Part shown: piece after piece, positions 16,526 through 22,711 of the stretch
Position numbering within the stretch: the first letter of the stretch is position 1
Layout of the letters: each line of letters starts with the position of its first letter
NCBI RefSeq assembly: GCF_054482525.1
Contig: NZ_CM137006.1
Reading direction: 5' to 3' (one strand)
Length of the DNA stretch: 64,000 nt
Notes under the pieces: model-generated
The model's input: only the letters and a program-made list of their open reading frames with translations
Databases searched by the model: none
Told to the model about the DNA's origin: nothing
Program-made: the position numbers and the translations under genes

Positions 16526-16765
16526 CCATTCAGGATGAGGCGGTAAGCTTCATCCTGATATTCTTGCTTCAGTTGCGCTCCAGTTAATCACTCTAAATAA
16601 CAACTGCTGAAATTATACGAATTTCGGTATGTATTTTAATTTATAGCGATAATGTTATTTTTATTTTCTGCAATGAACGTCACAAATAATTGTCGCTTAA
16701 GTTAAATTTATTTCAAATGATAATAAATATCAGTTCACTTATAATTTCTTGCTTTGTGATTTTAA

Positions 16766-16779
16766 TTGATAACGATCAA
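16766..16779. promoter_or_regulatory. Perfect FNR consensus box TTGAT-aacg-ATCAA upstream of ydhY
   Basis: Exact match to TTGAT-N4-ATCAA about 200 bp upstream of the ydhY ATG; the ydhYVWXUT operon is reported as FNR-activated. Confidence 0.6.
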
Positions 16780-16980
16780 TGTTAAGGGCTCAGAATAATC
16801 ACATTATTTTTTCTCCTAACCATAAAGGATTAGTTTATCGGCGTTAAATCTTTTCTCATACACTATCGGGTTAGGGAAAATATCTGGTGTTGGGGACAGA
16901 GTCAGCAGCGTATTAGTTGAATGCTTAATATCAGGCTGCTGAATTGTCAGCACTGTGTTTGCGAAGAGGATGCGAAATAA

Positions 16981-17607
16981 ATGAACCCGGTTGATCGTCC
17001 ACTATTAGATATTGGCTTAACGCGATTAGAATTCTTGCGTATATCAGGAAAAGGCCTTGCTGGTCTAACAATTGCCCCTGCGTTACTGTCACTTTTGGGT
17101 TGCAAACAGGAAGATATTGATAGCGGCACAGTAGGGTTGATAAATACACCCAAAGGGGTGCTGGTGACCCAGCGAGCGCGATGCACGGGTTGCCACCGCT
17201 GTGAAATCTCTTGTACCAACTTCAACGATGGCTCAGTAGGGACATTCTTCTCCCGTATCAAAATCCATCGCAATTATTTCTTTGGCGACAACGGGGTTGG
17301 CTCTGGCGGCGGCCTGTATGGCGATCTCAACTATACCGCGGACACCTGCCGTCAATGCAAAGAGCCGCAATGCATGAACGTCTGCCCGATTGGTGCGATT
17401 ACCTGGCAGCAGAAAGAAGGCTGTATTACCGTCGATCATAAACGTTGTATTGGCTGTAGCGCCTGTACTACGGCATGCCCGTGGATGATGGCCACCGTAA
17501 ATACCGAAAGTAAAAAATCCTCGAAATGTGTGTTATGCGGTGAATGCGCAAACGCCTGCCCAACAGGGGCGTTAAAAATTATCGAGTGGAAAGATATTAC
17601 TGTGTGA
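16981..17607 (+). CDS. ydhY: Ferredoxin-like 4Fe-4S protein YdhY, 208 aa
   Basis: Multiple CxxCxxCxxxCP motifs; first gene of the ydhYVWXUT operon. Confidence 0.9.
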   Translation: MNPVDRPLLDIGLTRLEFLRISGKGLAGLTIAPALLSLLGCKQEDIDSGTVGLINTPKGVLVTQRARCTGCHRCEISCTNFNDGSVGTFFSRIKIHRNYFFGDNGVGSGGGLYGDLNYTADTCRQCKEPQCMNVCPIGAITWQQKEGCITVDHKRCIGCSACTTACPWMMATVNTESKKSSKCVLCGECANACPTGALKIIEWKDITV

Positions 17608-17627
17608 ATCTTGCAAAGGAAAAAATC

Positions 17628-20381: not shown

Positions 20382-20444
20382 AATTTCAGGGAGATGTCAT
20401 GGATAGGGTGGACAGTTGCAGCCACTGCATTAGGGGATAATCAG

Positions 20445-21113
20445 ATGTCCTTCACTCGACGCAAATTTGTTCTGGGGATGGGAACAGTAATCTTTTTTAC
20501 TGGTTCTGCGTCTTCTCTGTTAGCGAACACGAGGCAAGAAAAGAAAGTTCGGTATGCCATGATTCATGACGAGTCACGGTGCAATGGCTGTAATATTTGC
20601 GCCCGCGCATGCCGTAAAACCAATCACGTCCCCGCTCAGGGAAGCCGTTTATCGATAGCACACATTCCAGTCACCGATAACGACAACGAAACGCAGTATC
20701 ACTTTTTTCGCCAGTCATGTCAGCACTGCGAAGATGCTCCGTGCATCGACGTTTGTCCGACAGCGGCATCGTGGCGTGATGAGCAGGGGATCGTACGGGT
20801 AGAAAAATCGCAGTGCATCGGCTGCAGTTATTGCATTGGCGCTTGTCCTTACCAGGTTCGCTACCTTAACCCTGTCACTAAAGTGGCAGATAAATGTGAT
20901 TTCTGCGCTGAGTCCCGACTGGCAAAAGGCTTTCCGCCCATTTGCGTCAGCGCCTGCCCGGAACACGCCTTGATCTTTGGTCGCGAAGATAGCCCAGAAA
21001 TTCAGGCGTGGTTGCAGGAAAATAAATACTATCAATATCAGCTACCTGGTGCCGGGAAACCGCACCTGTATCGCCGGTTCGGTCAACATTTGATTAAAAA
21101 GGAAAATGTATGA
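20445..21113 (+). CDS. ydhX: Tat-exported 4Fe-4S ferredoxin-like protein YdhX, 222 aa
   Basis: Start placed at ATG 20445 (MSFTRRKFVLGMG, twin-arginine motif) with AGGGG RBS; four Cys clusters. Confidence 0.88.
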   Translation: MSFTRRKFVLGMGTVIFFTGSASSLLANTRQEKKVRYAMIHDESRCNGCNICARACRKTNHVPAQGSRLSIAHIPVTDNDNETQYHFFRQSCQHCEDAPCIDVCPTAASWRDEQGIVRVEKSQCIGCSYCIGACPYQVRYLNPVTKVADKCDFCAESRLAKGFPPICVSACPEHALIFGREDSPEIQAWLQENKYYQYQLPGAGKPHLYRRFGQHLIKKENV

Positions 21114-21895
21114 ACCCGTCGCAACATGCTGAACAGTTTCAGAGCCAGTTGGCGAACTATGTGCCACAGTTCACTCCCCAATTTTGGCCGGTGTGGTTGA
21201 TCATTGCCGGACTATTGCTGGTAGGGATGTGGTTGGTGCTGGGGCTGCATGCCTTGCTTCGTGCTCGTGGCGTGAAGAAATCAGCCACCGATCATGGTGA
21301 GAAGATTTATCTTTACAGCAAAGCGGTCAGATTATGGCACTGGTCGAATGCGTTACTCTTTGTATTGTTGCTGGCAAGTGGGCTGATAAATCACTTTGCG
21401 CTGGTGGGCGCAACTGCGGTTAAAAGTCTGGTTGCGGTGCATGAAGTTTGCGGATTTTTGTTACTGGCATGCTGGCTTGGCTTTGTTCTGATCAATGCCG
21501 TTGGGGGTAATGGTCACCACTATCGCATTCGTCGTCAGGGGTGGCTGGAGCGAGCGGCAAAACAAACGCGATTCTATTTGTTTGGCATTATGCAGGGGGA
21601 AGAACATCCTTTCCCGGCAACAACCCAGTCTAAATTTAATCCCTTACAGCAGGTTGCCTATCTTGGTGTCATGTATGGATTGCTGCCGTTGTTACTATTG
21701 ACGGGGCTGCTGTGTCTCTATCCGCAAGCCGTGGGAGATGTGTTTCCTGGCGTAAGATACTGGTTATTGCAGGCGCATTTTGCTCTGGCATTTATAAGCC
21801 TCTTTTTTATCTTCGGTCATCTTTATCTTTGCACCACGGGGCGTACGCCACACGAAACCTTTAAAAGCATGGTCGATGGCTATCACCGGCACTAA
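21110..21895 (+). CDS. ydhU: Cytochrome b-type membrane subunit YdhU (PhsC-like), 261 aa
   Basis: Polytopic membrane ORF overlapping the ydhX stop by 4 nt. Confidence 0.88.
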   Translation: MNPSQHAEQFQSQLANYVPQFTPQFWPVWLIIAGLLLVGMWLVLGLHALLRARGVKKSATDHGEKIYLYSKAVRLWHWSNALLFVLLLASGLINHFALVGATAVKSLVAVHEVCGFLLLACWLGFVLINAVGGNGHHYRIRRQGWLERAAKQTRFYLFGIMQGEEHPFPATTQSKFNPLQQVAYLGVMYGLLPLLLLTGLLCLYPQAVGDVFPGVRYWLLQAHFALAFISLFFIFGHLYLCTTGRTPHETFKSMVDGYHRH

Positions 21896-21898
21896 CGA

Positions 21899-22711
21899 AT
21901 GATCATTACACGAGCAGACCTGCGAGAATGGCGTATCGGAGCGGTGATGTATCGCTGGTTTCTGCGCCATTTCCCACGCGGCGGTAGTTATGCCGATATT
22001 CATCATGCACTGATTGAGGAAGGATATACGGACTGGGCGGAGAGTCTAGTTGAGTATGCGTGGAAAAAATGGCTGGCGGATGAAAACTTCGCGCATCAGG
22101 AAGTTTCTTCTATGCAAAAACTGGCCACAGATCCCGGAGAGAGACCATTTTGCAGTCAGTTTGCCCGCAGCGACGATCATGCTCGCATCGGCTGTTGTGA
22201 GGATAATGCCAGAATCGCAACTGCTGGGTATGCCGCGCAAATTGCCAGTATGGGTTATAGCGTGCGGATTGGAAGTGTCGGCTTTAACAGTCACATTGGC
22301 AGCTCCGGTGAACGCGCACGGGTTGCTGTAACCGGTAATTCTTCGCGGATAAGCAGCGCTGGAGATAGTAGTCGGATTGCGAATACCGGAATGCGAGTAC
22401 GCGTTTGTACATTGGGTGAACGGTGTCATGTCGCCAGTAATGGTGACCTGGTGCAAATCGCCAGCTTTGGCGCAAACGCCAGAATTGCCAACAGCGGCGA
22501 CAATGTACACATCATTGCCAGCGGTGAAGATTCAACAATAGTGAGCACGGGCGTGGTCGACTCAATTATTCTCGGGCCAGGGGGAAGCGCCGCACTGGCA
22601 TATCATGACGGCGAAAGAGTTCGCTTCGCCGTCGCCATTGAAGGTGAAAACAATATTCGAGCCGGAGTCCGCTATCGCCTTAATGAACAGCATCAGTTTG
22701 TTGAGTGCTGA
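21899..22711 (+). CDS. ydhT: Uncharacterized protein YdhT, 270 aa, with a central array of 9-residue repeats
   Basis: Last gene of the ydhYVWXUT operon; about 16 consecutive 9-aa units of pattern x-[RHQ]-[IV]-x-x-x-G-x-x read directly from the translation. Confidence 0.85.
   Translation: MIITRADLREWRIGAVMYRWFLRHFPRGGSYADIHHALIEEGYTDWAESLVEYAWKKWLADENFAHQEVSSMQKLATDPGERPFCSQFARSDDHARIGCCEDNARIATAGYAAQIASMGYSVRIGSVGFNSHIGSSGERARVAVTGNSSRISSAGDSSRIANTGMRVRVCTLGERCHVASNGDLVQIASFGANARIANSGDNVHIIASGEDSTIVSTGVVDSIILGPGGSAALAYHDGERVRFAVAIEGENNIRAGVRYRLNEQHQFVEC

Follow-up and report, generated by a model that had tools for sequence, protein, structure and literature searches.

The stretch of DNA analyzed here (hereafter the window) comprises 64,000 nucleotides of contig NZ_CM137006.1 in the NCBI RefSeq assembly GCF_054482525.1 and is 100% identical at the DNA level to the chromosome of Escherichia coli PCN033. 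Our subject is the gene cluster at positions 16526-22711. It is the PCN033 copy of ydhYVWXUT, a previously described E. coli operon that is activated by FNR and that encodes a putative membrane-linked molybdenum-pterin oxidoreductase system around YdhV, a protein of the aldehyde:ferredoxin oxidoreductase (AOR) family. The comparative results presented below point to a periplasmic, quinone-linked complex rather than to classical aldehyde oxidation, and they suggest that the whole operon, and not ydhV alone, is the unit to express. The genes, all on the + strand, are the following.

16981-17607, + strand: ydhY, 208 amino acids (aa), start as in RefSeq and in E. coli K-12
17628-19730, + strand: ydhV, 700 aa, start as in RefSeq and in K-12
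19734-20381, + strand: ydhW, 215 aa, with the K-12 start
20445-21113, + strand: ydhX, 222 aa, start as in RefSeq and in K-12
21110-21895, + strand: ydhU, 261 aa, start as in RefSeq and in K-12
21899-22711, + strand: ydhT, 270 aa, start as in RefSeq and in K-12, position 22711 being the last base of the stop codon

A preliminary description of this DNA had called all six genes intact, and they are: none of the open reading frames (ORFs) contains an internal stop codon and all have the lengths known from K-12. The proteins are 96-100% identical in amino acid sequence to those of K-12 (99% for YdhV), and the operon was recovered from 5397 of 5426 complete E. coli genomes, counting matches over at least 80% of the length of the stretch. 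Genes, gene order, lengths and junctions are the same as in the K-12 operon (b1674-b1669; Partridge et al., 2008; Myers et al., 2013), from which the PCN033 copy differs by strain-level substitutions, by one extra A in the leader and by a RefSeq start for ydhW that lies 9 nt later. From ydhY to ydhT the junctions measure +20, +3, +63, -4 and +3 nt, the negative value being a 4-nt ATGA overlap between ydhX and ydhU. The tight coupling described previously is thus seen in this overlap and in the short gaps elsewhere, except for the 63-nt spacer between ydhW and ydhX. As for the start of ydhW, the upstream ATG is used in K-12 (19734, 215 aa) and the ATG 9 nt downstream in the RefSeq annotation of PCN033 (19743, 212 aa); the NCBIfam model for YdhW aligns over residues 1-215.

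YdhV matches both families that define the AOR proteins, AFOR_N (PF02730, E = 2.6e-67, residues 7-205) and AFOR_C (PF01314, E = 5.1e-47, residues 270-685), in each case above the gathering score, and its relatives in the PDB include 1aor, 1b25 and 4z3w. The family assignment in the preliminary description therefore stands, but it needs a correction, since the active site argues against a place in the aldehyde-oxidizing branch. Four cysteines (Cys307, Cys310, Cys314 and Cys558), the ligands of the [4Fe-4S] cluster next to the pterin, are invariant in 21 members of the clade, and the first three align with Cys288, Cys291 and Cys295 of the Pyrococcus furiosus AOR (1aor). A further cysteine, Cys336, which is present in 16 of the 21 clade members, falls in the alignment column of BamB Cys322, the metal ligand of class II benzoyl-CoA reductase. 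The position of Glu313 in the P. furiosus enzyme corresponds to Gly332 in YdhV, as read from an ungapped extension of the aligned cysteine motif; the position of His448 could not be aligned. Aldehyde-oxidizing AOR enzymes in the strict sense have characteristic second-shell residues (Glu313 and His448 in the P. furiosus AOR) and no protein ligand to the metal, and YdhV departs from this description at Gly332 and Cys336. A recent review characterizes the YdhV clade in the same terms, with a cysteine ligand in common with BamB and without the second-shell residues of the aldehyde-oxidizing enzymes (PMC12096430, published in 2025). Judged from these residues, YdhV is a member of the AOR family outside the aldehyde-oxidizing branch, with an active site of the BamB type. 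The screen of aldehydes and acids that had been suggested as a follow-up was probably aimed at the wrong chemistry, because Cys336 resembles a BamB-type ligand and the Glu313 equivalent is missing.

The nature of the cofactor, for which a comparison of tungsten and molybdenum had been proposed, is already described in the literature. The YdhV protein of K-12 contains a bis-Mo-MPT cofactor and prefers Mo over W (Reschke 2019, as related in citing papers including PMC13328260), and the same work, as there related, settles the earlier reservation that YdhV might lack the residues for pterin binding. Published accounts name YdhV as the first enzyme of E. coli for which binding of bis-Mo-MPT was discovered. 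The protein has no signal peptide of its own.

Two of the remaining subunits, YdhY and YdhX, each contain four cysteine motifs, enough for four [4Fe-4S] clusters, and the previous reading of both as poly-ferredoxins is borne out. YdhY matches Fer4 families in Pfam as well as the NCBIfam model PRK09898 (E = 1e-131), and YdhX matches Fer4_11 along with, below the cutoffs, the NCBIfam models for NrfC (2e-73), DsrO and TtrB. In its position directly upstream of ydhV, ydhY encodes a four-cluster small subunit with a signal resembling those of the twin-arginine translocation (Tat) pathway, as found in the Class V WOR enzymes (clade 41), a class in which the large subunit is accompanied by a small one that has four clusters and bears either a Tat signal or a transmembrane segment (PMC13328260).

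The two ferredoxins differ in their N-termini. YdhX starts with MSFTRRKF, which includes the motif TRRKF, and its N-terminus, MSFTRRKFVLGMG...SSLLA, is a canonical Tat signal in which the motif, the hydrophobic core and a cleavage site of the A-x-A type are all present (MSFTRRKFVLGMGTVIFFTGSASSLLA). The arginine pair was kept in all six YdhX homologs examined. In YdhY, we found a degenerate Tat-like motif, TRLEFLR, combined with a lipobox-like LLGC. SignalP 6.0 is reported to place YdhY in the class Tat/SPII, that of lipoproteins exported by Tat, and YdhX in the class Tat/SPI (PMC13101318, PMC13245402). The twin-arginine signal of YdhX is thus as previously noted, whereas the export signal of predicted Tat/lipoprotein type on YdhY had gone unmentioned. 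A comparison of residues 1-50 of YdhY (16981-17130) across our loci L004-L075 and L084-L086 revealed a systematic shift. Wherever YdhX is lacking and the N-terminus of YdhY is intact, YdhY has (S/T)RR, in many cases together with a lipobox-like L-x-G-C, and in every locus that contains both YdhX and YdhU the second arginine of YdhY is replaced (R-L, R-Q or R-K) while YdhX has R-R. All such replacements belong to a single clade, and the shift therefore counts as one evolutionary event.

YdhU had been named as a cytochrome b membrane anchor, and this is supported by a match to Ni_hydr_CYTB (PF01292, E = 1.1e-30) and by five predicted transmembrane segments in the hydropathy profile. It also matches PRK15006 (E = 9e-138), TIGR01583 and TIGR02125. 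Four histidines, His77, His111, His223 and His237, the latter two being 14 residues apart, are located in predicted transmembrane segments and are invariant in eight homologs, including those from assemblies of Deltaproteobacteria, Syntrophaceae and Nitrospiraceae. This is the pattern that would be expected for two hemes b spanning the membrane. A search for relatives of YdhU in the PDB that are detectable by sequence returned none, and the heme ligands are for this reason proposed from conservation.

To place the operon in a broader context, we scanned one genome per species with a seven-sequence alignment of YdhV as the query, which returned 78 loci. Homologs of the six proteins were searched with tblastn in 85 loci, and neighboring ORFs were clustered over 53 de-replicated loci; the representative metagenomic YdhV proteins sit on contigs too short to provide a gene context. 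Genes for YdhY, YdhV and YdhW were identified together by tblastn in Firmicutes, Spirochaetes, Coriobacteriia, Fusobacteria, Chloroflexi, Deltaproteobacteria and Shewanella, and ydhY-ydhV-ydhW is thus a core that is conserved across phyla. Homologs of ydhW were recovered from 59 of the 85 loci by tblastn and from 45 of the 53 de-replicated loci by clustering. The combination of ydhX and ydhU is much narrower, since in the 78-locus scan both were present together solely in Escherichia, Citrobacter, Budvicia and Brenneria. The combination also occurs at three more loci, one in a Telmatospirillum assembly and two in metagenomic sequences. These three have no ydhT, the named homologs of which all come from genera of the Enterobacterales. 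In four assemblies labeled as Deltaproteobacteria, Syntrophaceae or Nitrospiraceae, a gene for a YdhU-like cytochrome b is located between ydhY and ydhV.

The genes that recur in the neighborhood are fdhD (13 loci, adjacent to ydhV/ydhW), moeA (12 loci), tatC (9 loci), moaA (5 loci) and a NifU-like gene (5 loci), with tatA at one locus. Loci with fdhD, tatC, moeA or moaA as neighbors include L013, L014, L017-L019, L023, L033, L037, L045, L055-L057, L065 and L086, among others; at L086 the order is moaA-fdhD-Y-V-W-X-U-moeA. These neighbors suggest that the cofactor may need sulfuration of the FdhD type, FdhD being of the cofactor sulfurtransferase family. The clustering yielded genes for maturation and export and no recurrent clue to the substrate. 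Two loci, one from the Eggerthellaceae (L025) and one from the Bacillota (L038), contain two ydhV paralogs within a few kb that are 47-51% identical to YdhV of E. coli, and the latter also has two copies of ydhY.

The two remaining proteins, YdhW and YdhT, match only the families that bear their own names, in agreement with their earlier listing as proteins without an assigned role. YdhW is acidic, with an isoelectric point (pI) of 4.4 compared to a median of 4.7 for its homologs, it has no signal peptide, and it models as a tandem winged-helix protein. We considered whether it could be a chaperone of the TorD/DmsD/NarJ type, but the model does not have the all-helical TorD fold. Likewise, a role as a DNA-binding regulator is unlikely because of the acidic pI of the protein and its homologs, and given a position inside the operon in many phyla. 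A function as an assembly or export factor or chaperone, or as an extra subunit, is more plausible. In the model of YdhT (pLDDT 86), a helical domain at the N-terminus (approximately residues 1-77) leads into a beta-solenoid with repeats of about 9 residues; structural matches were limited to generic beta-helices, and no signal peptide was identified. From its distribution, YdhT appears to be a late, lineage-specific accessory.

We hypothesize that the products of the operon constitute a Tat-exported, periplasm-facing oxidoreductase complex that is wired to the quinone pool, with a flow of electrons from quinol to an acceptor as the favored direction, and we assign a probability of about 0.6 to this reading. 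YdhU would act as a membrane cytochrome b with two hemes that exchanges electrons with menaquinol or menaquinone, and YdhX and YdhY, with four iron-sulfur clusters each and with a canonical Tat signal and a Tat/lipoprotein-type signal, respectively, would together make up a wire of eight clusters. This wire would lead to the [4Fe-4S] cluster and the cysteine-ligated Mo-bis-pterin center of YdhV, which may be carried across the membrane as a passenger of Tat-exported partners. In the reductive direction, electrons would pass from quinol to an acceptor in the periplasm, and a two-heme anchor of the PhsC type could allow the proton-motive force to assist the transfer. YdhW may serve in the cytoplasm as a factor for assembly or export. 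The reductive direction is favored because induction under anaerobic conditions together with repression by nitrate and nitrite is the pattern of a low-priority terminal reductase. The genes, their domains, the conserved Cys and His ligands, the FNR site and, through the literature, the Mo-bis-MPT cofactor are established, and we infer the topology, the order of the subunits, the electron direction and what YdhW and YdhT do in this scheme. A periplasmic orientation has also been predicted by others (PMC13328260, PMC4257093), and we have counted the Tat motifs of YdhX and of the YdhY homologs and the presence of tatC and tatA next to ydh genes in its favor. For the link to quinones, we count the four invariant histidines and the family match of YdhU, as well as the YdhU-like cytochrome b between ydhY and ydhV in four assemblies.

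Several observations weigh against this scheme. The twin-arginine pair is absent from YdhY, which has R-L where the consensus has R-R, so that its export is a matter of prediction, and YdhY was not listed among the 25 TatP-predicted Tat substrates of PCN033, which do include YdhX (PMC7549933). In the same study, deletion of ydhX gave no phenotype in mouse competition (competitive index 0.99) and no virulence defect. Recombinant YdhV, purified after over-expression of ydhV alone, was inactive, probably due to an unstable cluster (PMC13328260). According to the same paper, enzymes of Class V WOR (clade 41) were still without any assigned activity or role in June 2026, so that the view taken in the preliminary description, that the substrate has not been established, is still the published position; our search of the literature available to us from 2022 onward for a functional assignment of a YdhV-type enzyme found none. 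Furthermore, the proposed direction of electron flow draws solely on an analogy in regulation, and if the center works at a very low potential of the AOR/BamB type, menaquinol could hardly serve as its donor without help from the proton-motive force.

The same periplasmic architecture could also be run in the opposite direction, as a dehydrogenase in which YdhV oxidizes a low-potential donor in the periplasm, an aldehyde or similar compound, and sends the electrons by way of YdhY, YdhX and YdhU to menaquinone at the cytoplasmic face. Energy would thereby be conserved in a redox loop, in the manner of formate dehydrogenase-N. We consider this rather unlikely. Membership of YdhV in the AOR family speaks for a dehydrogenase, as all characterized members except BamB oxidize aldehydes (PMC12096430), and the four histidines and two putative hemes of YdhU match the FdnI/HyaC family (TIGR01583, TIGR02125). 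There are also weak and non-specific phenotypes, in that the fitness of a ydhU transposon mutant is altered by furfural as well as by many other chemicals and that a ydhU deletion is sensitive to reuterin. However, YdhV has a BamB-type cysteine ligand and no equivalent of Glu313, no aldehyde activity was detected in the purified protein, although this preparation was cluster-deficient, and repression by nitrate and nitrite is opposite to the regulation of the donor enzyme fdnGHI, which is textbook knowledge.

Another arrangement would keep the catalytic part inside the cell. If, in the lineage with YdhX and YdhU, the degenerate signal of YdhY were a remnant, as in NarG, then YdhV and YdhY could be located at the cytoplasmic face, with YdhX as the only exported component and the two-heme YdhU as the conduit across the membrane between them. 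The loss of the second arginine of YdhY in every YdhX+YdhU locus, with R-R kept elsewhere where the N-terminus is intact, would fit such an arrangement, as would the location of the putative heme ligands of YdhU near both faces of the membrane and the recovery of YdhV in soluble form upon purification. We nevertheless judge it very improbable. The correlation with the arginines stems from one clade and thus from one event, and the hydrophobic core and the L-x-G-C lipobox (Cys41) of YdhY remained strongly conserved after the arginine was lost. SignalP 6.0 still assigns YdhY to Tat/SPII with a probability above 99%, the charge distribution as read from the sequence favors an N-in/C-out orientation, and a periplasmic YdhX without a catalytic partner has no obvious purpose. 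The periplasmic, reductive complex could alternatively have a specific type of acceptor, namely a sulfur compound as in thiosulfate, polysulfide or tetrathionate reductases, which would be a special case of the explanation that we favor. Here, the annotation invites the idea: RefSeq names ydhU phsC (thiosulfate reductase cytochrome b), KEGG places it in sulfur metabolism, and YdhY and YdhX match ferredoxins of the TtrB, DsrO and NrfC types below the cutoffs. Enzymes of the Psr/Phs type also use a cysteine-ligated Mo-bis-pterin center, according to textbook knowledge. Yet the name phsC originates from the PRK15006 model, which aligns over the full length of YdhU, and is for that reason an annotation transfer and not an experimental result. 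In addition, YdhV belongs to a different superfamily than PhsA and PsrA, and no genes for sulfur metabolism recur as neighbors in about 60 loci. We find a sulfur-compound reductase improbable on these grounds.

Three more specific, linked ideas can be combined. One idea is that, in the lineage that acquired YdhX and YdhU, YdhV, YdhY and YdhX would cross the membrane as a single Tat cargo, with the twin-arginine function shifted from YdhY to YdhX and only the hydrophobic core and the lipobox kept on YdhY. Another is that YdhW could be a chaperone for Tat proofreading or cofactor insertion, for which the modeled fold would be new. The third is that, through a two-heme YdhU of the PhsC type, the proton-motive force could drive electrons uphill from menaquinol to a low-potential, cysteine-ligated Mo center, in a BamB-like reduction on the periplasmic side. 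That all three should hold jointly is a speculative proposal, and we would not expect it to be correct in full.

A closely related system is the Class V WOR (clade 41) of Cetobacterium somerae, CsWOR41, which has the same combination of a YdhV-type large subunit with a YdhY-type small subunit that carries a Tat signal, and which is associated with the membrane (PMC13328260). The Cetobacterium locus in our set (L013) contains ydhY, ydhV and ydhW. The E. coli system differs by the addition of YdhX, YdhU and YdhT, by R-L on YdhY and by its preference for Mo, whereas CsWOR41 preferentially incorporates W (PMC13328260). BamB of class II benzoyl-CoA reductase shares the AOR-family fold with YdhV and has Cys322 in the place of Cys336, and neither protein has the second-shell residues of the aldehyde type; their sequences match best in the N-terminal domains (E = 1.4e-81 against the profile). 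BamB works on a CoA thioester, as a tungsten enzyme of the cytoplasm within a complex of the BamBC type, whereas YdhV prefers Mo and has a context linked to Tat and quinones. The P. furiosus AOR (1aor) and formaldehyde:ferredoxin oxidoreductase (1b25) have the same AFOR_N and AFOR_C domains and the same CxxCxxxC plus distal Cys for the [4Fe-4S] cluster, but they have no Cys at the position of Cys336 and are soluble, cytoplasmic tungsten enzymes that work with free ferredoxin. In its general logic, the ydh system resembles the three-subunit periplasmic molybdoenzymes PhsABC and PsrABC, where a Tat-exported pterin enzyme is combined with a four-cluster ferredoxin and a quinol-oxidizing anchor. 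The PhsC-named model recognizes YdhU, and YdhX has matches to subunits of the TtrB, NrfC and DsrO types. The differences are that catalysis is by an AOR-family rather than a DMSO reductase-family protein, that two ferredoxins are placed in series, and that YdhW and YdhT are extra.

YdhV represents a large, gut-associated clade, the Class V WOR enzymes, and the question of its substrate is real and well recognized. The system had been known and annotated before, with studies of both its promoter and its cofactor, and the window itself adds nothing new to the substrate question. What we contribute are modest refinements, namely the Y-V-W core, the twin-arginine shift from YdhY to YdhX, the tandem winged-helix model of YdhW and the neighborhoods with FdhD and TatC. 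For the biochemistry, YdhW, and in many organisms also FdhD and dedicated Tat components, should be treated as part of the requirements for maturation.

Upstream of ydhY, the following regulatory features were identified.

16716-16732, + strand: conserved upstream block AATGATAATAAATATCA, kept between Escherichia and four Citrobacter loci
16766-16779, + strand: FNR box TTGATAACGATCAA, an exact TTGAT-N4-ATCAA, through which the class II promoter of ydhY is activated
16800-16807, + strand: conserved CACATTAT, with a -10-like CATTAT at 16802-16807, invariant in Escherichia and Citrobacter
16815-16980, + strand: predicted 5' untranslated leader of about 166 nt, from a predicted start near 16815 (±1)
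16817-16832, + strand: candidate NarL/NarP 7-2-7 site TAACCAT-aa-AGGATTA, centered near +10

The exact FNR box, which had been recognized in the preliminary description along with the AT-rich leader (GC 0.31 over 16500-16950), is the sole exact TTGAT-N4-ATCAA in the window. Shuffled sequences give an expectation of 0.09 such sites per window, with at least one in 8 of 100 shuffles, so that the count by itself is modest evidence and would be compatible with chance. What settles the assignment to FNR is the identity to K-12, the published chromatin immunoprecipitation (ChIP) data and the conservation in Citrobacter. The intergenic region of 458 nt between fumD and ydhY is 99% identical to that of K-12, with an identical FNR box, and in K-12 the operon was found by ChIP-seq to be directly bound and regulated by FNR, with a peak and a site at -42.5 (PMC3688515). 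A perfect box is also present in four Citrobacter loci and in one divergent Escherichia locus, its center being located about 209-239 nt before the ATG of ydhY. The published K-12 data (PMC3688515) thereby answer the concern, voiced with the first description, that the site might be unbound or far from the true promoter. Class II spacing, with a site centered about 41.5-42.5 bp before the start, and occupancy by FNR can be carried over to PCN033 via the 99% identity of the promoter and are in that sense predicted.

The CATTAT hexamer is a putative -10 element, the spacing of which fits a start about 42.5 nt from the center of the FNR site at 16772.5, and the proposed start near 16815 follows from the addition of these two numbers. 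The block CCTAACCnTAAAGGATTAG (16815-16833, approximately +1 to +19) is invariant at 18 of 19 positions in Escherichia and Citrobacter and encloses the NarL/NarP-like site, each heptamer of which has one mismatch to the consensus TACYYMT / AKRRGTA; in the leader, we found one-mismatch heptamers only and no exact NarL heptamer. The ydhY promoter is repressed by nitrate and nitrite via NarL and NarP (Partridge 2008, in the wording of later papers that cite it). This repression probably takes place at the candidate 7-2-7-like site just past the start, since a center near +10 suits repression. Better in vitro transcription from the ydh promoter has also been reported for sigma-S RNA polymerase (PMC3141248). 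Escherichia and Citrobacter share the last ~27 nt of the leader, including the Shine-Dalgarno sequence GAGGA, without any variation. A scan of 16000-23500 against Rfam at E <= 1 gave no match, and the 166-nt leader therefore contains no known riboswitch or leader RNA.

A few minor features were noted in the same region. A sigma-70-like match, ATGATA-17-TATAAT (10 of 12 positions, 16717-16745), is located upstream of the FNR box with its first hexamer overlapping AATGATAATAAATATCA, and a start from this site would place the FNR box near +20; promoter-like sites are not enriched in the region, with 6 observed compared to 9.8 in shuffles. In Citrobacter sp. Cu233 (L012), a 19-nt insertion with palindromic ends, TACCCGTGTTTAGGGTATG, is found directly downstream of CCTAACCnTAAAGGATTAG, and none of the other Citrobacter and Escherichia loci shares it. 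An upstream ORF of 19 codons, MLNIRLLNCQHCVCEEDAK, covers 16921-16980, and its TAA stop abuts the ATG of ydhY. The cysteine-rich ORF occurs in Escherichia and, as an in-frame version MCCC[H/Y]CVCEEDAK, in three of four Citrobacter loci. We rejected this ORF as a real gene, because L012 has lost the ATG, Budvicia and Brenneria do not have the ORF, and a Shine-Dalgarno sequence is missing; conservation of the ribosome-binding region of ydhY has probably produced it as a side effect.

The borders of the interval contain one more element, which is not part of the ydh operon.

16530-16558, + strand: intrinsic terminator hairpin of fumD (ydhZ), with a 12-bp stem (6 of the pairs GC), a loop of 5 nt and, directly after it, TATTCTTGCT

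The stop codon of fumD ends at 16525 and the hairpin follows directly; the interval 16526-22711 includes this terminator because 16526 is the first base past that stop codon. At the other end, the stop codons of ydhT and the convergent gene ydhS are 5 nt apart (22711-22717), and a search for a terminator-like hairpin between the two found none, the nearest candidates being located inside ydhS. Further upstream, RefSeq annotates the small protein YnhH (64 aa, approximately 15767-15961, - strand), just upstream of pykF and on the same strand as that gene.

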